Sequence record: MN445185.1
Origin: Escherichia phage vB_EcoM_EC001
DNA length: 64,000 bases
Strand: one strand, 5' to 3'
Position numbers and translations under genes: made by a program. Shown one piece after another: positions 6,419-49,604 of this stretch. Every line of letters starts with the position of its first letter. Position 1 is the stretch's first letter. The notes beneath the pieces were generated by a model. That model did not search any database. It worked only from the letters and a program-made list of their open reading frames with translations, and was not told where the DNA came from.

Positions 6419-6420
6419 TC

Positions 6421-6442
6421 TGAGATAGATATTATCTACAGG
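6421..6442 (+). promoter_or_regulatory. candidate phage promoter, AT-rich motif family A (TGAGATAGATATTATCTACAGG)
   Basis: Intergenic, ~30 nt upstream of the 6472 start; shares CTSAGAYAKATATTAYCT core with sites at 14950 and 46607. Confidence 0.4.
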
Positions 6443-9135: not shown

Positions 9136-9149
9136 TTAATCGACCATTA
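9136..9149 (+). promoter_or_regulatory. conserved 14-mer TTAATCGACCATTA (motif family B), candidate phage promoter or 5' leader element
   Basis: Exact 14-mer 17 nt upstream of ATG 9167; identical copies at 46667 and 47536, each 17-19 nt before a start codon. Confidence 0.45.
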
Positions 9150-9166: not shown

Positions 9167-10090
9167 ATGGACAGCTTTCTTTTTGATTTGGCAGAATCGG
9201 TAAATGTAGATGTAATCGGTATGCGCGAATCCCCGAGTAATTTCTTAAACGGTCTTACTAAAATCGACGAACGTGTGAAATCCAGAAGTGGAGATCCCGC
9301 CATCATCGAGCAATACGCAATAGCCCATTGTGGCGAGATAGGCCAGCACTTTATACCGATTGAGGCGTTCCTAAAGAACTGCTTCGCCGAAGAATGCACC
9401 GCAGACTTCCTGTCTCTTGCCTACGGCTGGCGATACGGGGGTATCCAAATGGAATTTGATCTTAATATTTTTGAACAAGTTCTACTTGGCGACGTTCTCA
9501 CTGAGATACCACGCAGCTGGATAGACAAGATTCCCGGTTGGGCCGTCTCCTTTTCAGTGTGCTATCGCGCTAAAGATATCGGTATCCAAGAAAAGACTTA
9601 CGTTTTCGGTCGGCGAATGTTTAAAGGGAAAGATTGTTTAACAATGATGATTTTTGGAAAACGTATCGAGGGGGAAACCTTTGAAATCGTGGACGTGGGT
9701 GACGGCTTTGTATCCTTGCGTGTGGCGGAAACTGGTACGCCGGCCAATGAGAAAACGTTACGCATTGTCGGCGCTACCATGTTTACATTCTCACTGATCC
9801 CGCACAACCCTACACCCGTCAAACTGAGACAATTAACTGGAAAGAAACGTATCGCCAATTACCACATTGAACCAAAATCTAAACCGACTGTCCTCTCCAC
9901 CGTAAAAGCACAAAGCGAGTATCTTGAAGAATTTGATACTGATACGGAGAAAAGAACACAAGGTAGCAGATGTGCGCATATGCGTCGTGCACACTGGTGT
10001 ACTTACTGGCTCGGTCCACGTGACGGGAATCGGACAAAGATTTTGAAATGGATACCGCCGACATTTGTCAACGGTTCTAAATGCAAATAA
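9167..10090 (+). CDS. hypothetical protein (307 aa)
   Basis: Long ORF with SD AAAGGAG upstream. Confidence 0.65.
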   Translation: MDSFLFDLAESVNVDVIGMRESPSNFLNGLTKIDERVKSRSGDPAIIEQYAIAHCGEIGQHFIPIEAFLKNCFAEECTADFLSLAYGWRYGGIQMEFDLNIFEQVLLGDVLTEIPRSWIDKIPGWAVSFSVCYRAKDIGIQEKTYVFGRRMFKGKDCLTMMIFGKRIEGETFEIVDVGDGFVSLRVAETGTPANEKTLRIVGATMFTFSLIPHNPTPVKLRQLTGKKRIANYHIEPKSKPTVLSTVKAQSEYLEEFDTDTEKRTQGSRCAHMRRAHWCTYWLGPRDGNRTKILKWIPPTFVNGSKCK

Positions 10091-14949: not shown

Positions 14950-14979
14950 AAAAAGAACTCAGACAGATATTATCTATCC
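14950..14979 (+). promoter_or_regulatory. candidate phage promoter, AT-rich motif family A (AAAAAGAACTCAGACAGATATTATCTATCC)
   Basis: In divergent intergenic region, ~30 nt upstream of the 15010 start; near-identical to the 46607 site. Confidence 0.45.
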
Positions 14980-19683: not shown

Positions 19684-20103
19684 ATGAACAATATCGCGTT
19701 TGAAAAAGGCGTTGGGTTACTTCTGAACAACACCATCGTCGCTGGCACTAATAACGCTAACTGGGAAGCGTTAGCGCAACGTCTCAAAGACAAGCCTGTG
19801 AAGATTGTGGTAACGAGCGAGCTGCCGTTAAACGGCACGATGGCGGACTGTGGTCCAATGTTTGCGGCGTTTAACATCGACTATGATTGCGGTTCCGCTT
19901 TCTTACAAAACGCCGCGTTACGTAGCCGTCTGTACAGCTGGCGTTTGCTGGGTCCGGTAAGTAAAGCCGCAGGTCAAATGGTTAACCAGGGCACACCGAT
20001 GTCGGGTGTAGAAGACCAGACTATCGCCGTTGTCGTTTCTCGCGCAACCGGCCAGCTTAACTTTGCAATCTGCTACGCGTATCAGGAGGAAGAGTATGCT
20101 TAG
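19684..20103 (+). CDS. hypothetical protein (139 aa)
   Basis: ORF with SD AAGGAGA upstream. Confidence 0.5.
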   Translation: MNNIAFEKGVGLLLNNTIVAGTNNANWEALAQRLKDKPVKIVVTSELPLNGTMADCGPMFAAFNIDYDCGSAFLQNAALRSRLYSWRLLGPVSKAAGQMVNQGTPMSGVEDQTIAVVVSRATGQLNFAICYAYQEEEYA

Positions 20104-20956
20104 TATTATTCAGCAGACTCAGGCGGTTGATGATTGGTACCGGCAAGCGAAGATTTACCAATACGGGACACGCGAGCAGCAGCTAGCCAAGTTCTATCGC
20201 ACATTAGGCGACGTCGCTGAAGGTGTGCAGAAGATGGACAACTTGAAAGTGGCGGCGGCCATGGGTCGCTCTCTTTGGGCGTTCGTTGGTCTGTTGCACT
20301 TCGGCAAGCACACGAACGTGGGAGATTTCGTTATTCCACTGGATGCAGCTATAAAAGACCGCACCACGGGAAACACCAAAGAGTTCCGTCTTCATAACCT
20401 TTTTGTTGTTGCCACCGAAGTGGTTGGACTCATATTGCAAGATGAGCACGAGCCCCACAGCTACGTTACCGAGCTGCATAGTTTGGCGCGACAATACCGA
20501 ATGTTGGCGCGTATCTGCGGCCTGGAATTCGGCCGTGTAATATACAACGGACATCGTGTGCTAATCAACACGAAAGGTGAAATGAACGGCATCGGGTTGT
20601 TTGTTCCCGCGTCTGATGATTTTACTGGCGATAAATTGCCTGGTTCTAGACAGATGTCTGGGCCAGCCATCTGTCTGATGTTCCAGACTGTCCTGGACAG
20701 TTGTGTCGCTACGCACCTTGCGCCCTATTGCCACCGGCCGTTTAAACGCGACGAGTTGCCGACAATCAATGCTGCACTCGCAACTACGTTAAACGAACTG
20801 CTGGACAAATATGTTCGTGACTCAGTGCGCTGGAATCGTATCCTGTTCGAACGTGTACCTGAAATAACCGCAGCCTACACAGATGGCGGTGTGAATGTGG
20901 TGATGAATGATGATCTACTTTACTTATTTGAAAGCTTAAAGAGGGATAGTATCTAA
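20096..20956 (+). CDS. hypothetical protein (286 aa), coupled to thymidylate synthase
   Basis: ATG at 20096 with SD AGGAGGA; stop overlaps the thymidylate synthase start (TAATG); MazG-like pyrophosphatase considered but motif match is weak. Confidence 0.5.
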
Positions 20957-21987
20957 TGAAGCAATACCTTGAAACGATGCAGAATATTCTGGATGAAGGG
21001 CATGTTAAAGGCGACCGTACTGGAACAGGGACGCTCTCCGTCTTTGGTCGCCAAATGCGTTTTGATTTGCGCAAAGGTTTCCCGCTAGTCACGACTAAAA
21101 AACTCCACCTGCGTTCTATTATTCACGAACTGCTGTGGTTCCTTAGTGGCGATACCAACACCAAATATCTGGAAGATAACGGCGTTACCATTTGGCGGGA
21201 GTGGCAAGATGAAAATGGGAACCTTGGCCCCCTGTATGGGGAACAGTGGAGACGTTGGAAAGATGTGAAACTGGTGCCTAAGAAAAATGCAGCTTTACTC
21301 GAGAAACTGCAAGATGCAGGATACGTGGATTATGGCGACGCGGACGACGGTTCACAAATGTTCGATGCGCGTGTACTTCTGAAAGAGCACGACCAAATCT
21401 CTAAGGTGATTGACCAACTGCGTAACGATCCTGACAGTCGCCGTATTATTGTCAGCGCATGGAATGTGGGTGAGTTGGATCAAATGGCGTTAGCTCCGTG
21501 TCATGCGTTCTTTCAGTTCTACACTCGTGAGCTGTCTATCGACGAGCGGGTGAATTGGGCAGAAGATAACGATAACGAACTCTGGTCTGATTATGTCCAC
21601 AGCACGTACGTACCCGCACCTAAGCGATTAGAGTGGTTGGATAAAGCCAACGTGCCAACCCGTATGTTGTCTTGTCAGCTGTATGCACGTTCCCAAGACT
21701 TCTTCCTGGGAACACCGTTCAACATCGCGTCTTACGCATTACTCGTGCACATGGTAGCTCAACAAGTTAACATGGTGCCAGGCGATTTCGTTTGGAGCGG
21801 CGGTGACGTGCATCTGTACTCCAACCATCTGGAGCAGGCCAAGCTGCAGCTGACGCGTGAACCTTTACCTTTGCCGAAACTGGTCATCAAACGTAAACCG
21901 GAATCTATCTTCGGTTATAAGTTCGATGATTTTGAGATCCAGGATTACGTATCACACGACCCAATTAAAGCGCCTGTCGCTATCTAA
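20956..21987 (+). CDS. thyA: thymidylate synthase (ThyA family) with two insertions relative to E. coli ThyA
   Basis: N-terminus [31 protein letters not shown], active-site [12 protein letters not shown]-terminus [25 protein letters not shown] all near-identical to E. coli ThyA (from memory). Confidence 0.92.
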
Positions 21988-24307: not shown

Positions 24308-25249
24308 ATGGGCGAACGTTTCATTATCCAGATTCCGTATAACGTTATTGTTGAACCTAACCAGTACCTGGCACAGATTAATGAGCTTCTGGCTGGATTC
24401 TGCCAACGTCAGTTTGTTAAACCGTGGTCCTTTGAGAAACTGTACACCCTGTGCGTGAACAGTGAAACCGGTCACACTTACGTCGAAGGTAAAGTCTTCA
24501 CAGGCGACCAGCGTTTGGAAATAAATGATTTCGAAATGCCGTGGACGTTGGAAGGTGTCGAGTATCGTGGTACGGTTGATCGTCCGCGTTACGTACCTTT
24601 GTACACCATCCCACAATGTATTACTAACGTTATGGGTTGGTCTAAAGCGCGTGGTATTCTGGATAACGGCGTCTGGTATAGCCAAGCCACCAAACTCTAC
24701 GAAGAAGACGGTGAAGCGGCAACCGGTATCAGTAAAAACAAACGCCGTTACATCATGGACGGTATCGGTGATGCTCTGGTCGTGCTGGTTAACTTGATGG
24801 AACTCATTAAGTTTGACTCAACCGATATCACCACATACGTCAACGACGCACGTTCAAAGAAACCACACGCCGGGAACAGTCATTACCTGTTCCACAAAAT
24901 GCGTTTCCATCTTACTTGTGCAGTTGATTATATCTGGGATCAGGCAGGCATCGACTCAGCTAAGCAACTCGAATATAAACACTTCGAGAACAGCGACGCG
25001 GTAATGATCGAATGTCACTTCGCGCAGATGGTCGAATACGCCAATGCGCTGGCTAATGCGTACGATATGACTCTGGAACAGTGCTTCTCCTTGGCGTGGG
25101 ATGAAATCAAAGACCGTAAGGGTTTCCTGAATGCGGACGGTATCTTCGTTAAAGAAGCAGACATGACTGCTGCTGAAATCGAAGTAAACGGTTCCCTTAC
25201 TGTAAAAGATGAGGCGTTTACCGATGGCGAAGAAACTGTTCACGGTTGA
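24308..25249 (+). CDS. hypothetical protein (313 aa)
   Basis: Long ORF with SD AAGGAG upstream. Confidence 0.6.
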   Translation: MGERFIIQIPYNVIVEPNQYLAQINELLAGFCQRQFVKPWSFEKLYTLCVNSETGHTYVEGKVFTGDQRLEINDFEMPWTLEGVEYRGTVDRPRYVPLYTIPQCITNVMGWSKARGILDNGVWYSQATKLYEEDGEAATGISKNKRRYIMDGIGDALVVLVNLMELIKFDSTDITTYVNDARSKKPHAGNSHYLFHKMRFHLTCAVDYIWDQAGIDSAKQLEYKHFENSDAVMIECHFAQMVEYANALANAYDMTLEQCFSLAWDEIKDRKGFLNADGIFVKEADMTAAEIEVNGSLTVKDEAFTDGEETVHG

Positions 25250-43358: not shown

Positions 43359-44087
43359 GTGGTCGTGAGCGCCATTGAAACAGCACGTCGTGACGCGACG
43401 AAAATTCATGCAGATTTAGTGGACCAAGGCACGGCCACCATCACCAAAGGGGGATGTTACATTTACATCCCTGTTGGCTTCGTGGCTAAAGAGCTGGCGG
43501 TAATTTCTTCGCAAGTCGAAATCGTCGGCATTTTCGCTATCTCCACTGACCGCAAAACCTACGGGGTATCGAACGTCACGACGTTCATTGAAATTACCCC
43601 GTCGGCGTTTGAGGAAATTGATGTTCAGGGTGTGCCGTATTACGAGTTCCGTTTTGACCCCGGCACGGTGGTGTTCCCCAACCGAATGCTGCAAGTGCTC
43701 TCCTCGCCAGTCTACAACATCGCTTCGTACATCTACGACTTCGGAAACCGGCCTTTCTGGTACACCGCAGTAGATGACGCTGAGCTATTGTCTGACACTA
43801 AGACGTGGAACGGCTTTACGGTCTTTAACGACCAGATCACCGCTGACTGTTATGCTGCCCACACACAGCGTAAGGTTGGCGACCCGCGGACGTATTTCCG
43901 CTACACCCTGAAAAAAGACAGCGATTTGATGAATCGGGTGCAGTTTATTCCGCTGCGTTCAGGTTCATTGAACAAAACTTCCCGGTTGGCCAAGATTGCA
44001 GATGTGGAACTGAAACAGGGTATCCGTTCTGCACTCCAGGTCGATCCGGTACGTGCAGAGCCACTCGAGGATTTGTATATGAGGTAA
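43359..44087 (+). CDS. hypothetical protein (242 aa)
   Basis: Long ORF. Confidence 0.55.
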   Translation: MVVSAIETARRDATKIHADLVDQGTATITKGGCYIYIPVGFVAKELAVISSQVEIVGIFAISTDRKTYGVSNVTTFIEITPSAFEEIDVQGVPYYEFRFDPGTVVFPNRMLQVLSSPVYNIASYIYDFGNRPFWYTAVDDAELLSDTKTWNGFTVFNDQITADCYAAHTQRKVGDPRTYFRYTLKKDSDLMNRVQFIPLRSGSLNKTSRLAKIADVELKQGIRSALQVDPVRAEPLEDLYMR

Positions 44088-44956: not shown

Positions 44957-45586
44957 ATGGCAGAACATATCGACCCGTCATTAGAGCGGTGGTGTGAACG
45001 CCAGATGCCGCACGTCGCCAAAAAGTTGACGTTACGTAAACTGACTGAACAGCCGCTGCATTTAAGCAAGTGTAAGATACCGACGTTTTCGCCGCGTATC
45101 CCACTTTCGTGCGCGCCAGATGAAGACAAGACCGTGCCCAGAATTTGCTGCTCGGTAGATTTAGAGCGAGCGATTAAGGGTGCACGTCACAACTTCTCTG
45201 CAATCGAAATACCCACACGATTGTATCTTTACGGTTTTGATGAGCGTGATGTAGCGCAGCCTTCGGTCAACCTGACGCAGGAACCGAATCGGGCGGGTGA
45301 AGTATGGATTGTACCACACCGCATGTCGAACTGGGATATCAAACCGACTTACCTGGGCGAGATGCGGTTGTCAGAACTTCGCAACGGCGGCCATGTTTTT
45401 GTCTATCACTTAAGTTTCGGACAAGATGTGCGCCTGTCTACCAGTCAACTGCTGAAAGCCGGCGAATTTTATCGACTGATTATCAGCGTCAACTGGGAGC
45501 GCGGTGAAGTTAAGGTCTCGGAGGCGGTCGCCACTGCGCGTACTGCTTTTGATAACGCACTGAACGAATACGTCGTTTCACCGTAG
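44957..45586 (+). CDS. hypothetical protein (209 aa)
   Basis: Long ORF immediately after upstream stop. Confidence 0.55.
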   Translation: MAEHIDPSLERWCERQMPHVAKKLTLRKLTEQPLHLSKCKIPTFSPRIPLSCAPDEDKTVPRICCSVDLERAIKGARHNFSAIEIPTRLYLYGFDERDVAQPSVNLTQEPNRAGEVWIVPHRMSNWDIKPTYLGEMRLSELRNGGHVFVYHLSFGQDVRLSTSQLLKAGEFYRLIISVNWERGEVKVSEAVATARTAFDNALNEYVVSP

Positions 45587-45641
45587 TGCTTAGTTCGTGG
45601 TCTGCAAATCACAACTAAAAACCACTACAGTAGGGGGACGC

Positions 45642-45941
45642 ATGAAGGTCGTTAACATCGCAATACCTCCGACCCTTCGTTGTTTGACGCCGGAAGAACT
45701 GAAAGCGTTAGCGATCTACGCTATCCAAGGAAAGGCTGGTAAAGAAGTGCTTGCCGAAATCTTATCGGAACGTTTTGATACAAAACGCAAGATTAATAAC
45801 ATCATCTCCGGAATCGCGTCGCTAGATATCATGGCACTCTATTGCGACATTAAAGAGGCTGGAGTGACAATCGACTATCGCCGTACTTACTTTCTACTCA
45901 CTGAGCCGTATCGTTCGAATATGGCAATAAAGCAGATGTAA
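45642..45941 (+). CDS. hypothetical protein (99 aa)
   Basis: ATG at 45642 with SD AGGGGGA; track ORF from 45597. Confidence 0.45.
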   Translation: MKVVNIAIPPTLRCLTPEELKALAIYAIQGKAGKEVLAEILSERFDTKRKINNIISGIASLDIMALYCDIKEAGVTIDYRRTYFLLTEPYRSNMAIKQM

Positions 45942-45994
45942 TTTTTTACATGACGTTGGTTTCATGTGTTGGGGAACAAAATAAGGACAAGAAG

Positions 45995-46543
45995 ATGTTT
46001 TATCTGGATAGCGATGGCGTTTTTGCACGCTGGCGTAAATACGTTTTATCCACACATTTTCCCGGAATGACGATTAAAGAGTTTAACGCACTACCTGAAC
46101 TCCGTCGCCGTAGTTTGGTTCGTTCGATGTATCAGAACGATCCTGACTTGTTTTACAAACTCGAACCAATTGAGGGTGTAGAGCGAATCCTGGAAACGGT
46201 AGATAGACTTTGCGACAGTTGGGCAATACTCACCTCTGGGTCAGAAGATCACTACGACCACCAATTGGTCGTGGATTCAAAACAACGGTGGTTCATGAAG
46301 CACTTTGGGGTACCAGCTGACAAAGTCATCGTCACCGAAAGTTCAGGGCAGAAGAAAGCTTACGCCTCGCGAGGTAATTTGCTTGTCGACGATTATGGTC
46401 GTAACTGTCGAGAATGGATTTTGCAAGGTGGCGCGGCGATATGGTCGCGAACTGAAGAACCGAACATTGATGGCATTTGCCTCCAGTGTGAAGCGTTCTA
46501 CAATGACCCGATTAGTCACTCGGGGACACTACTGCAAGTCTAA
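45995..46543 (+). CDS. HAD-superfamily phosphatase, likely 5'(3')-deoxyribonucleotidase-type
   Basis: N-terminal FYLDSDGVFA (HAD motif I DxDG), ILTSGS (motif II), LLVDDYGRN (motif IV-like). Confidence 0.5.
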   Translation: MFYLDSDGVFARWRKYVLSTHFPGMTIKEFNALPELRRRSLVRSMYQNDPDLFYKLEPIEGVERILETVDRLCDSWAILTSGSEDHYDHQLVVDSKQRWFMKHFGVPADKVIVTESSGQKKAYASRGNLLVDDYGRNCREWILQGGAAIWSRTEEPNIDGICLQCEAFYNDPISHSGTLLQV

Positions 46544-46553
46544 GCTCCACTAG

Positions 46554-46596
46554 GCTCATCCTATCTTCGGATACGGGTGAGTCTTTTTATTTTATT
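46554..46596 (+). terminator. rho-independent terminator
   Basis: CTCATCCTATC-TTCG-GATACGGGTGAG hairpin (one G-U pair) followed by T-tract. Confidence 0.7.
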
Positions 46597-46606
46597 AATT
46601 GCATTC

Positions 46607-46635
46607 AAAAAGAACTGAGATATATATTACTTAGG
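46607..46635 (+). promoter_or_regulatory. candidate phage promoter, AT-rich motif family A (AAAAAGAACTGAGATATATATTACTTAGG)
   Basis: Intergenic; contains TATATTAC; same architecture as the 14950 site. Confidence 0.45.
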
Positions 46636-46666
46636 TGAGCGTTACACGTTAACGCTTTAATCGACC

Positions 46667-46680
46667 ATTACCCAGAAGGA
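46667..46680 (+). promoter_or_regulatory. conserved 14-mer TTAATCGACCATTA (motif family B)
   Basis: Exact copy 19 nt upstream of ATG 46690 (via SD AGAAGGAG). Confidence 0.45.
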
Positions 46681-46689
46681 GTATTTACA

Positions 46690-47088
46690 ATGACTAACCA
46701 ACTACGCCAAGACCCGTTTGTTGCCATGATGCTTTGTGCTAAAGCCGAGAGCAACGAAGCCGATTTAATTCGTCTGTTGACTGATGACGAATACCTTATC
46801 GCTGAGCGCGATAAACGTTTAAAAGAACTCTACAAGCCAGAAACCGGTGAATCGCTCGACAATCAAGACGCCTGGAAGTTTCTTATTCTCATTGCTGATG
46901 AAAAGTGGCGAGCAGAAAATCCCATCGTCTGTGATATTACAGACCTACCGTACAAATACGGCGGACTCATCACCAGCGACCTGCATCTTAAAGCGTACTT
47001 TGATGGCGAAGCAATACAAGAGCTGCAAGATGTTCTTATTACAGCAACGAACACTTTGAGACGTTTGCGCGCTGAGCAGCTGATCTGA
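46690..47088 (+). CDS. hypothetical protein (132 aa)
   Basis: ORF with strong SD; preceded by the family B motif. Confidence 0.55.
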   Translation: MTNQLRQDPFVAMMLCAKAESNEADLIRLLTDDEYLIAERDKRLKELYKPETGESLDNQDAWKFLILIADEKWRAENPIVCDITDLPYKYGGLITSDLHLKAYFDGEAIQELQDVLITATNTLRRLRAEQLI

Positions 47089-47142
47089 TCTCTCAAAAAT
47101 AACGAATCGTACAAATCCTTTGACTGTGTAGGAAGGAATAAA

Positions 47143-47532
47143 ATGAAAATCGCAGAGGGGTTAGTAGATGCGTGCAGAGATCCATTTACGCTATGGGTTC
47201 TTTGTGGCTTGCGCCGAGACGATCGTTTCGGTGAGTTTGTTCGAAATCCAGATGCTTTACTAAGCTTCGTAGAAAGCGAGGAGAAGCGTTTAGAGGAGAT
47301 TAAGGAGGAAAGTAGTACCCTTACACCAGATATGGTGGTTTATAGCCGTATGACGTCACACAGGTGGCGTACGACCCATCGGCTGAAGGGAACCTCAATG
47401 AAGGAATTGATTGAAGGGTTATCAAAGGCGCTTTCGTCTGATAACATTATCTGGCCGGTGATGTATACCAACGAAGACCACTCTGATAACGTGAAGGTTA
47501 CACTGACACGTTGTTATCACACATTCTCGTAG
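47143..47532 (+). CDS. hypothetical protein (129 aa)
   Basis: ORF with SD AGGAAGGA upstream. Confidence 0.5.
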   Translation: MKIAEGLVDACRDPFTLWVLCGLRRDDRFGEFVRNPDALLSFVESEEKRLEEIKEESSTLTPDMVVYSRMTSHRWRTTHRLKGTSMKELIEGLSKALSSDNIIWPVMYTNEDHSDNVKVTLTRCYHTFS

Positions 47533-47535
47533 TAG

Positions 47536-47549
47536 TTAATCGACCATTA
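47536..47549 (+). promoter_or_regulatory. conserved 14-mer TTAATCGACCATTA (motif family B)
   Basis: Exact copy 17 nt upstream of ATG 47567. Confidence 0.45.
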
Positions 47550-47566
47550 TCGTAAGGAATATTTAC

Positions 47567-48238
47567 ATGCAGGGCACTGAACTCAACAAACTTTGGGAAA
47601 AACTGGTTCGTCAATTCCGCGACTTCTATCGTTATACCGATAGTGCGCATCGCATGGATCACATCAACTCAGTTAAATCAAATGCAATTCGTATCGCGTA
47701 TATGCTTGGGCAAACCGAACACCTGAAGCTGATACTGATTGCGGTGGCAGCTCATGATATCTTCTCTACCAAAGAAGACCGTGCGTCTCACCACATCAAA
47801 GGGTATAGCTGGATACTGGATAACAAACCAGTGCTCAAACGTAAGTATAAACTTACCGATGATGAATGTTTGACGATTGCCCATGCAGTCTTAGAACACC
47901 GCAGTTCTCACAAAGGGAACTACAACGGGATTGTCTCTGAGATAGTTGCCGCAGCTGACCGTGGTATACCGTCTGTAGATGACGTGAGCAATTACATGCA
48001 CCGTTCTTATCTGTTTGCCCGTGAGCAGGGTAAAAGTAAAGGTGATGCAAAATTCCATGCCGTTGGTCATGTCCAACAGAAGTTCGGACGCAACGGTGTT
48101 AGTAATGTCCCTAGTTGGTACGGTACGCTCTTCGCAGAGCGCATTCTGGAACGCAGGGATTTCGTGGAGCAGCTAGATATTAGCTATTTCACAGATACCA
48201 TTATCGACGACCTCGAAGCTCGTCTTTCACACGATTAA
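47567..48238 (+). CDS. HD-domain phosphohydrolase, putative
   Basis: AHRMDH..(30 aa)..IAVAAHDIFS fits the H..HD metal-binding signature. Confidence 0.5.
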   Translation: MQGTELNKLWEKLVRQFRDFYRYTDSAHRMDHINSVKSNAIRIAYMLGQTEHLKLILIAVAAHDIFSTKEDRASHHIKGYSWILDNKPVLKRKYKLTDDECLTIAHAVLEHRSSHKGNYNGIVSEIVAAADRGIPSVDDVSNYMHRSYLFAREQGKSKGDAKFHAVGHVQQKFGRNGVSNVPSWYGTLFAERILERRDFVEQLDISYFTDTIIDDLEARLSHD

Positions 48239-48264
48239 TCACACTGACCTTAAGGAATATTAAG

Positions 48265-48753
48265 ATGGCTGAAGTAACTTCAATGAAAGCACTGCACAAA
48301 CTGATCGCTGAACTGGACACGCCGGCAGCAACCCTGTCCGAAGACCTGGCGCTGAACGCTGACCCGCTGGTTAAGATTTACGAAGAAACACTCCCCGTAA
48401 CGAAAGTTGGGGATGTGGACTATCGCTTCACACTGGAAGACGCTGACGCTCTGCGACAGCACGACGCAAACTTCACTGAACTGTTCGGTGGCGTTGCCGG
48501 TGGTCTGATTGCTGACCGTGCAAAAGCGGATAGCGAAATCGGTGCACTGGACTTAACGCTCGATATCGGCAACGCAGCATTCTCTACCGTGTTCTCTCGC
48601 CCGGTTACTGAAAACCCAACTCAGAAAGAATGGGCAGCGTCCATCTCTTACGGTTTCGGTTCTCCGAAGTCTAAAGCGTTGGAAGGCAAGCTGCGTAAAG
48701 AGTTTGCCAAGTCCATGATGGCAACCGATGAAGAAGACGAAGACGACGAATAA
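48265..48753 (+). CDS. hypothetical protein (162 aa) with strongly acidic C-terminal tail (TDEEDEDDE)
   Basis: ORF with SD AAGGAATA upstream. Confidence 0.55.
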   Translation: MAEVTSMKALHKLIAELDTPAATLSEDLALNADPLVKIYEETLPVTKVGDVDYRFTLEDADALRQHDANFTELFGGVAGGLIADRAKADSEIGALDLTLDIGNAAFSTVFSRPVTENPTQKEWAASISYGFGSPKSKALEGKLRKEFAKSMMATDEEDEDDE

Positions 48754-48956
48754 TGATTCCGTCCAGCCCAAAGGAACTCGCTGAGCTACTCGGGGCTAAA
48801 GCGGAATGTCATCCTAATGTGAATCCCGCTACTGGGTTACGTTGGGATGGCACCCTTGCGTCACACGAGGAAATCGGTCTCACCGTCACCTTCCCTAAAC
48901 CTATGCCGAAGCCGCTGCAGTTAGAAGGGCTTGCTTCGCTATACGGTCGGAAGTAG
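48753..48956 (+). CDS. hypothetical small protein (67 aa)
   Basis: TAATG overlap with upstream stop. Confidence 0.4.
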   Translation: MIPSSPKELAELLGAKAECHPNVNPATGLRWDGTLASHEEIGLTVTFPKPMPKPLQLEGLASLYGRK

Positions 48957-48963
48957 TAAACAA

Positions 48964-48998
48964 TGGGGTGGTCTTATGACTGCCCTATTTTTTTTTTG
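48964..48998 (+). terminator. rho-independent terminator (stem with G-U pairs)
   Basis: GGGTGGTC-TTAT-GACTGCCC hairpin followed by a T-tract of ten. Confidence 0.55.
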
Positions 48999-49555: not shown

Positions 49556-49604
49556 AACGTACCTCTCTCCAAATGGAGAGAGGTAACGCTTGTTTTTTTT
49601 TTGT
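49546..49604. terminator. bidirectional rho-independent terminator
   Basis: CCTCTCTCC-AAAT-GGAGAGAGG hairpin with long T-tract and upstream A-tract, between convergent genes. Confidence 0.8.

Follow-up and report, generated by a model that had tools for sequence, protein, structure and literature searches.

What do a HAD-type phosphatase and an HD-domain hydrolase do in close company in the genome of a large phage? The question is raised by Escherichia phage vB_EcoM_EC001 (MN445185.1), of which we have analysed a stretch of 64,000 nucleotides, called the window below. The initial annotation of this DNA had seen a HAD-type DxDG phosphatase and an HD-domain hydrolase within 45995-48238, and had read them together as a sign of nucleotide-pool manipulation that might accompany modified DNA. 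Both genes are real, and their family assignments hold:

45995..46543, + strand: HAD phosphatase of the NT5C family, gp248 homologue, 182 amino acids (MFYLDSDGV...), recognised by Pfam, PHROG, motifs and fold
47567..48238, + strand: HD-domain metal-dependent phosphohydrolase, gp251 homologue, 223 amino acids, YedJ/2pq7/YpgQ group, recognised by family profile and motif

Neither gene is unusual within its known superfamily, and public records already label the HD gene 'putative HD domain protein' (SPN3US) and the HAD gene NT5C (SPFM19) or 'putative deoxyribonucleotidase' (pEa_SNUABM_43). No mention of gp248-gp251 was found in the SPN3US literature that we have searched. The explanation that we favour, at about even chances, is that gp248 and gp251 are nucleotide hydrolases with auxiliary roles, independent of each other, in a nucleus-forming jumbo phage with thymine-containing DNA. 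The analysis has established the family and fold of each protein, the intactness of the catalytic residues, the transcription signals and the distribution of the genes; the substrates, the expression timing and the physiological role of the two proteins are what we infer.

The window comes from an SPN3US-like nucleus-forming jumbo phage, and the gp numbering is carried over from the annotation of SPN3US, a Seoulvirus and itself a phiKZ-like nucleus-forming jumbo phage. Over bases 45500-48800 the identity is 98.9% with Enterobacteria phage SEGD1 and 98.7% with Salmonella phage SPN3US, and 22 phage records each span 80% or more of this region. Here gp248-gp251 are placed between the gene of the prohead protease gp245 (Peptidase_S80, 1e-84) and the tail tube and sheath genes, and the HD gene starts ~1 kb downstream of the HAD gene on the same + strand.

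The HAD protein is a member of the NT5C family

The membership of gp248 in the NT5C family is sound. The protein scores 33.9 bits against Pfam NT5C (PF06941; curated cut-off 24.8, E 3.7e-8) and matches phrog_2643, '5'-3' deoxyribonucleotidase', at 2.8e-20. In an alignment of 10 homologues with identity down to 29%, HAD motifs I (D5, D7, G8), II (T80), III (K120) and IV (D132, D133) are all invariant. Since every aligned homologue begins at the Met of 45995, this codon, and not the upstream ATG at 45950, is taken as the start.

The AlphaFold2 model (predicted local distance difference test 95) has the fold of the family, i.e., a Rossmann-like core with a small helical cap like that of cdN and mdN. 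Its best Foldseek matches in the PDB are human and mouse cdN (2i7d, 4yih, 2jao; E 2.5e-5 to 1.2e-4), and by sequence the match to cdN/mdN structures is weak (E ~0.008). The phage protein shares with these mammalian enzymes the HAD core with its DxDG(V), T, K and DD motifs, as well as the aromatic 'LF..L.P' cap segment. On the other hand, it is only 20-24% identical to them, shorter (182 amino acids) and phage-encoded. Overall, gp248 is a probable 5'(3')-deoxyribonucleotidase with intact catalytic motifs, plausibly a phosphatase of deoxynucleoside monophosphates (dNMPs).

In several other phages (Kwan, Wellington, pVa-21, vB_pir03 and BiPBO1), NT5C-type HAD homologues are labelled 'putative DNA repair exonuclease' or 'DNA repair endonuclease', which looks like propagated misannotation.

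The HD protein belongs to the YedJ/2pq7/YpgQ group

As a single sequence, gp251 has no Pfam match and no PDB match by phmmer, so a profile of 55 family members was used for remote matches. The family is a large one, with 651 clusters at 50% identity in an exhaustive search (E <= 0.001). Among the 55 diverse members H28, H32, H63, D64, H75, H111, D131 and R146 are invariant, the HD metal motif included. Pfam HD is matched by 22 of these members, not by the gp251 query. The protein has the H...HD...D metal motif (H32, H63-D64, D131) and the all-alpha HD fold that define the superfamily.

Against the PDB the family profile finds 2pq7 (1.4e-12), E. coli YedJ (1.5e-10), 3djb, Lin1889 and B. subtilis YpgQ (1.8e-3). 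Both sequence and structure place gp251 closest to small proteins of the YedJ/2pq7/YpgQ type. We have considered gp251 as a YedJ orthologue and rejected this, since gp251 alone scores 23.9 bits against NCBIfam YedJ (NF007515), whose equivalog cut-off is 286; it is a distant relative instead. E. coli YedJ (PDB 3GW7) and the Thermotogales protein 2PQ7 are structural-genomics proteins with no characterised substrate, so no function can be transferred from them to gp251.

The sole characterised member of the group is YpgQ, a one-metal, Mn-dependent pyrophosphohydrolase of (deoxy)nucleoside triphosphates ((d)NTPs), with a kcat/KM of 91-281 M-1 s-1 (PMC8177086). Its metal ligands H29, H58, D59 and D124 align with H32, H63, D64 and D131 of gp251, and its proposed substrate residues H25, R136 and F140 with H28, R146 and F150, so that seven of the eight YpgQ residues are matched. 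The eighth, H158, lies beyond the end of the gp251 alignment, also when the closer family profile (A1) is used against the PDB, and H164 of gp251 is invariant yet unaligned. Compared with YpgQ (PDB 5DQV), to which it is 17% identical, gp251 has the additional invariant residues H75, H111 and R112 and a longer C-terminal helical region. The two extra histidines, H75 and H111, are also present in YedJ and 2pq7.

The pattern H..HD..H..H..D has been called diagnostic of a two-metal site in HD enzymes, among them YqeK and the phosphodiesterases (PMC8177086). Because gp251 carries this extended motif, with H75 and H111, it probably has a second metal site. In addition, R72, R112, R132, R146 and K172 are invariant or nearly so among the 55 members, and such residues would suit a polyphosphate substrate. 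By analogy, nucleoside polyphosphates, (d)NTPs or related compounds are the most likely substrates, with a phosphodiesterase role as the main alternative. A dCTP deaminase gene accompanies one remote member of the family on a phage-like contig.

Class I cyclic-nucleotide phosphodiesterases are marked by the signature HD(x)2H (HDxxH). We have rejected gp251 as an enzyme of this class: at H63-D64 (IFSTKEDRASHH, i.e., H63-D64-I-F-S-T) there is no His at +3, there is no Pfam PDEase match, and a protein of 223 amino acids compares with a domain of ~270-330. Identity to class I catalytic domains is 10-16%, gp251 being ~100 residues shorter.

The two genes appear to lie in separate transcription units

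The sequence from the HAD stop to the end of the HD gene's neighbourhood contains the following features:

46552..46596, + strand: terminator-like hairpin (UUCG loop) with U-run, directly 3' of the HAD stop, dG -18.3 kcal/mol
46615..46630, + strand: promoter-like motif CTGAGATATATATTAC, 19 bases past the hairpin, predicted early (virion RNA polymerase, vRNAP) promoter
46637..46657, + strand: 8-bp leader hairpin where the transcript is predicted to begin, from folding
46658..46670, + strand: conserved box TAATCGACCATTA, ~20 nt upstream of the gp249 start, exact copy
46690..47088, + strand: gp249 homologue, 132 amino acids, phrog_27024 only, no Pfam
47143..47532, + strand: gp250 homologue, 129 amino acids, phrog_23206 only
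47537..47549, + strand: second box of this region, 18 nt ahead of the HD gene's start codon, exact copy
48265..48753, + strand: gp252 homologue in the predicted gp249-gp253 unit, 162 amino acids, acidic C-terminus, phrog_7952 only
48753..48956, + strand: gp253 homologue, last in the predicted gp249-gp253 unit, 67 amino acids, phrog_15721 only
48962..48997, + strand: terminator-like site closing the predicted gp249-gp253 unit, 12-bp stem and T8, from the terminator scan

The hairpin after the HAD gene is much more stable than expected (z-score -5.6), and none of 200 shuffles was equally stable. A simple terminator scan from the vRNAP genes to gp253 does not pick up this bulged hairpin, and gives only 48962-48997 (strong) and 49560-49585 (bidirectional). 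At the matching site phage CR5 has a different hairpin, again with a T-run.

The motif downstream of the hairpin is one of a small set. In degenerate form, CTSAGANANATATTAY, it has three matches in the window (6420-6435, 14958-14973 and 46615-46630), where 0.03 are expected. Of its core AGATAKATATTAY, SPN3US has 14 copies on the + strand and none on the - strand (counted in the genome reassembled from loci, bases 1-234459). An 8-mer, TATATTAC, which we take to be phiKZ-like, was also tried as an enriched promoter motif and rejected, its three window matches comparing with 1.2 expected. Two of the places with AGATAKATATTAY sites in SPN3US are directly upstream of gp34/gp35 and gp76/gp77, which are subunit genes of the non-virion RNA polymerase (PMC5105663). 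Early vRNAP promoters of jumbo phages have been described as ~10-nt, AT-rich and highly conserved motifs (PMC7598289).

Because of the hairpin and the motif, the HD gene appears to lie in a unit of its own, gp249-gp253, separate from that of the HAD gene. This unit would be an early one, because its core motif also stands upstream of the non-virion RNA polymerase genes and fits the published description of early promoters. The HAD gene, on the other side of the hairpin, closes the virion/assembly block gp240-gp247 with its vRNAP and protease genes, and no early-type promoter motif is found on the same strand in the 10 kb upstream of it. Within this block, 43359-44087 (+) is a gp244 homologue, and with this identity the + strand block that closes with the HAD gene consists mostly of vRNAP and head-assembly genes. 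As for the single forward operon proposed initially, both genes do lie on the + strand, but a terminator-like hairpin, a promoter-like motif and the genes gp249 and gp250 intervene.

The promoter-like motif is the first part of a composite leader (46615-46689), which consists of the AT-rich motif CAGATATATATTACYTAGGTGA, a variable hairpin, the box TAATCGACYATTA, a Shine-Dalgarno sequence and the ATG. All seven of the seven sites in the subclass of the 46615-46630 promoter, folded singly, show a hairpin of 6-13 bp, each with its own sequence. No consensus fold of the aligned leader hairpins was obtained, as their stems are out of register in the alignment. Judged from its sequence, the composite leader probably represents the class of early (vRNAP) promoters used by SPN3US-like phages.

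The exact 13-mer TAATCGACCATTA has three copies in the window (9137-9149, 46658-46670 and 47537-47549), each 18-20 nt before a + strand start, namely those of the open reading frame at 9167, gp249 and the HD gene, and SPN3US has seven start-proximal copies. The copy ahead of the HD gene has no promoter motif before it. Possible roles for the box are those of an operator in translation, a site of RNA processing or a part of a promoter.

Several observations concern the surroundings of these features. The open reading frame at 9167-10090 (+) encodes 307 amino acids (phrog_6160), has no counterpart in SPN3US, and forms a ~964-bp insertion separating the gp213 and gp214 homologues; upstream of it are a hairpin with a T-run and then the TAATCGACCATTA box. 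The convergent gp254 and tail-tube genes are separated by a sequence (49560-49585) that holds a perfect inverted repeat of 11 bp and has T-runs on either strand; a bidirectional terminator would have this appearance. We have also considered gp249 and gp250 as paralogues and rejected this, as they share only a 42-residue N-terminal match (E 0.03).

The two genes are often found apart

The distribution of the two genes, searched with tblastn, tells how far they belong together. They are adjacent or nearly so in SPN3US-like phages, Asesino, phiEaH2, Huxley, Kwan, pEa_SNUABM_4, Derbicus and CR5. In CR5 the HAD gene is directly next to the HD gene, without gp249 and gp250 between them, which implies that gp249 and gp250 are lineage-specific insertions. 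This adjacency says little for a coupling of the two functions, because the genomes are collinear across the whole neighbourhood.

Elsewhere each gene occurs alone. Without the HD gene, the HAD gene occupies the corresponding locus in Vibrio phage pVa-21 and is also present in T4-like phages of Cronobacter and Enterobacter; Shewanella phage FishSpeaker has a HAD homologue without HD, two genes upstream of thymidylate synthase. Around the HAD gene of pVa-21 and of FishSpeaker the annotation shows no HD gene, and the neighbours scanned, two in FishSpeaker and one in pVa-21, are without a Pfam match. The HD gene occurs alone in Serratia phage PCH45, in RAY-like Erwinia phages, and in Aeromonas, Vibrio and Klebsiella jumbo phages, and the gene after the PCH45 homologue is not a HAD.

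In the records SPFM5, 6, 7, 8, 9, 10, 12, 14 and 15 the region matches solely as many short pieces (up to at least 40), and the HAD and HD products of these records are fragmented or chimeric. This suggests indel-rich assemblies, not true variation.

The thymidylate pathway is canonical

The pair had been described as separate from thyA, and indeed thyA lies 24 kb upstream of the HAD gene, flanked by two MazG-like genes, pool enzymes that were absent from the first list of such genes:

20030..20956, + strand: gp228 homologue, weak MazG relative directly upstream of thyA, phrog_10269 1.2e-77, phrog_7855 8.4e-6, no Pfam
20956..21987, + strand: thymidylate synthase, gp229 homologue, canonical, Pfam 1.3e-111
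24308..25249, + strand: MazG-like nucleotide pyrophosphohydrolase, gp235 homologue, phrog_7855 8.1e-146; Pfam MazG 0.0015, below cut-off

The phage ThyA matches E. coli ThyA with 411 bits and keeps Cys146, His147 and the dUMP-specifying Asn177 (PFNIAS). It is 343 amino acids long compared with 264, with two insertions at residues 103-144 and 192-236. For thyA of SPFM phages, positive selection has been reported (PMC6614189).

The SPN3US annotation adds DHFR and thymidylate kinase, and with both enzymes present thymine is, on the evidence of the gene content, made and not excluded in this phage. SPN3US also has a Dam methylase (PMC6614189). We have scanned 20 neighbouring products with Pfam and PHROG, along the lines of the domain searches proposed in the initial annotation, and have found no transferase, kinase, deaminase or hydroxymethylase, in agreement with its remark that no modification enzyme was recognised; for the rest of the genome, replacement-nucleotide enzymes were checked via the GenBank annotation only. 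In reviews, RNA polymerase-encoding nucleus-forming jumbo phages are described as thymine-containing (PMC7598289), and the Chimalliviridae as less often equipped with systems for DNA modification. Judged by these genes, a pathway to non-canonical DNA is not supported in this phage. The claim of pool manipulation thus stands as far as it names nucleotide hydrolases; with canonical ThyA, DHFR and thymidylate kinase, nothing points to modified DNA, and the caution with which this was offered as only a lead was apt.

Possible roles of the two enzymes

If gp248 and gp251 are independent auxiliary hydrolases, as we favour, gp248 would be a Mg-dependent enzyme turning dNMPs into deoxynucleosides, with an aspartyl-phosphate formed on D5 and with D7 as acid/base. 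gp251 would be metal-dependent, probably with two metals, and by analogy with YpgQ would act on nucleoside polyphosphates or (d)NTPs. The former would be made from the end of the virion/assembly block, and the latter from the unit with the predicted early promoter. Acting in sequence, gp251 and then gp248 could take a deoxynucleoside triphosphate (dNTP) to the dNMP and on to the deoxynucleoside. The net effect would be that particular pool species are trimmed or cleaned beside ThyA, DHFR, thymidylate kinase and the MazG-like enzymes, with the chemistry of the DNA unaltered.

Several points weigh against this explanation. The characterised relative of gp251, YpgQ, is just 17% identical, uses one metal and is slow (PMC8177086), and the invariant H75 and H111 are not YpgQ features, being shared with the uncharacterised YedJ and 2pq7. 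The differing predicted timing of the HAD and HD genes argues against an obligatory two-step pathway, as does their independent distribution outside the SPN3US/Erwinia/CR5 clade. In addition, the early unit gp249-gp253, with the HD gene in it, is one that we infer from a promoter motif.

The alternative that survives best, though we consider it unlikely, sees in gp251 a phosphodiesterase made early for counter-defence or host takeover, and in the HAD protein an unrelated neighbour. The phosphodiesterase would destroy a signal of nucleotide type, for example (p)ppGpp, Ap4A or a cyclic nucleotide (mono-, di- or oligo-). The predicted early promoter upstream, the occurrence of HD without HAD in many jumbo phages, the spread of the family in large phages with its 651 clusters, and the phage-like contexts of its remote members are all consistent with such a role, and the extended motif is typical of two-metal HD enzymes including YqeK and phosphodiesterases (PMC8177086). 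However, the closest matches are YedJ/2pq7/YpgQ-type proteins and not phosphodiesterases, the nucleotide-contacting residues of YpgQ are kept, and our literature search found no phage HD-domain enzyme degrading signalling or cyclic oligonucleotides. The HDxxH signature of class I phosphodiesterases is missing as well. Serratia phage PCH45, in which a member of the gp251 family is present, was reportedly found by Malone et al. to be still sensitive to type III CRISPR signalling, which also counts against this alternative.

A broader version, to which we give a somewhat smaller chance, takes in the whole gp251-type HD family, which occurs mostly in big phages: its members would be early enzymes with two metals that eliminate one specific nucleotide of the host, be it a particular dNTP or a signal of immunity or stress, and in the SPN3US/Erwinia/CR5 clade the conserved NT5C neighbour would complete the breakdown.

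The Dmp protein of phage T5 dephosphorylates dNMPs from degraded host DNA, and gp248 might work like it, so that the nucleosides exit the cell, while the HD protein would be unrelated housekeeping. The NT5C assignment agrees with this, and SPN3US encodes nucleases, namely an SbcCD-like protein and an endodeoxyribonuclease. We nevertheless regard this role as doubtful: the placement of the HAD gene after the vRNAP and protease genes, with no early motif within 10 kb, misfits an early host shutoff, the discarding of nucleotides clashes with the phage's own genes for dTMP synthesis, and host DNA degradation by SPN3US is unsupported here.

The weakest alternative is the initial lead itself, i.e., that the pair drains a canonical dNTP and dNMP so that a non-canonical nucleotide replaces it in the phage DNA. 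Base exclusion of this kind is carried out by the dTTPase/dUTPase and dTMP nucleotidase of hydroxymethyluracil phages and by the dTMPase of the uracil-DNA phage PBS2; these pairs, and T5 Dmp, have in common with our locus a possible dNTP pyrophosphohydrolase and dNMP phosphatase in one phage, here adjacent in CR5 and Erwinia relatives, with two MazG-like genes around thyA and many nearby genes without assigned function. It is very improbable, as the ThyA residues are not those of a hydroxymethylase-like variant, DHFR and thymidylate kinase are present, the scanned neighbours hold no replacement-nucleotide enzyme, the genes are distributed separately and predicted to be transcribed separately, and such phages are described in reviews as thymine-containing with DNA modification less common.

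Implications

Based on the above analyses, the lead towards non-canonical DNA can be dropped for this phage, and the supposed operon appears to be two units with differing predicted timing. The part of the locus that merits experiment is gp251, a member of a widespread phage family that probably has a two-metal site, is probably expressed early and is enzymatically uncharacterised. The conserved early-promoter leader would aid the annotation of early genes in SPN3US-like phages. Should the gp251 family prove to degrade a specific dNTP or a signal used in defence, the family would represent a new enzyme class in the phage-host nucleotide conflicts of nucleus-forming phages, and an HD-based form of phage counter-defence or pool control that has not been described previously.

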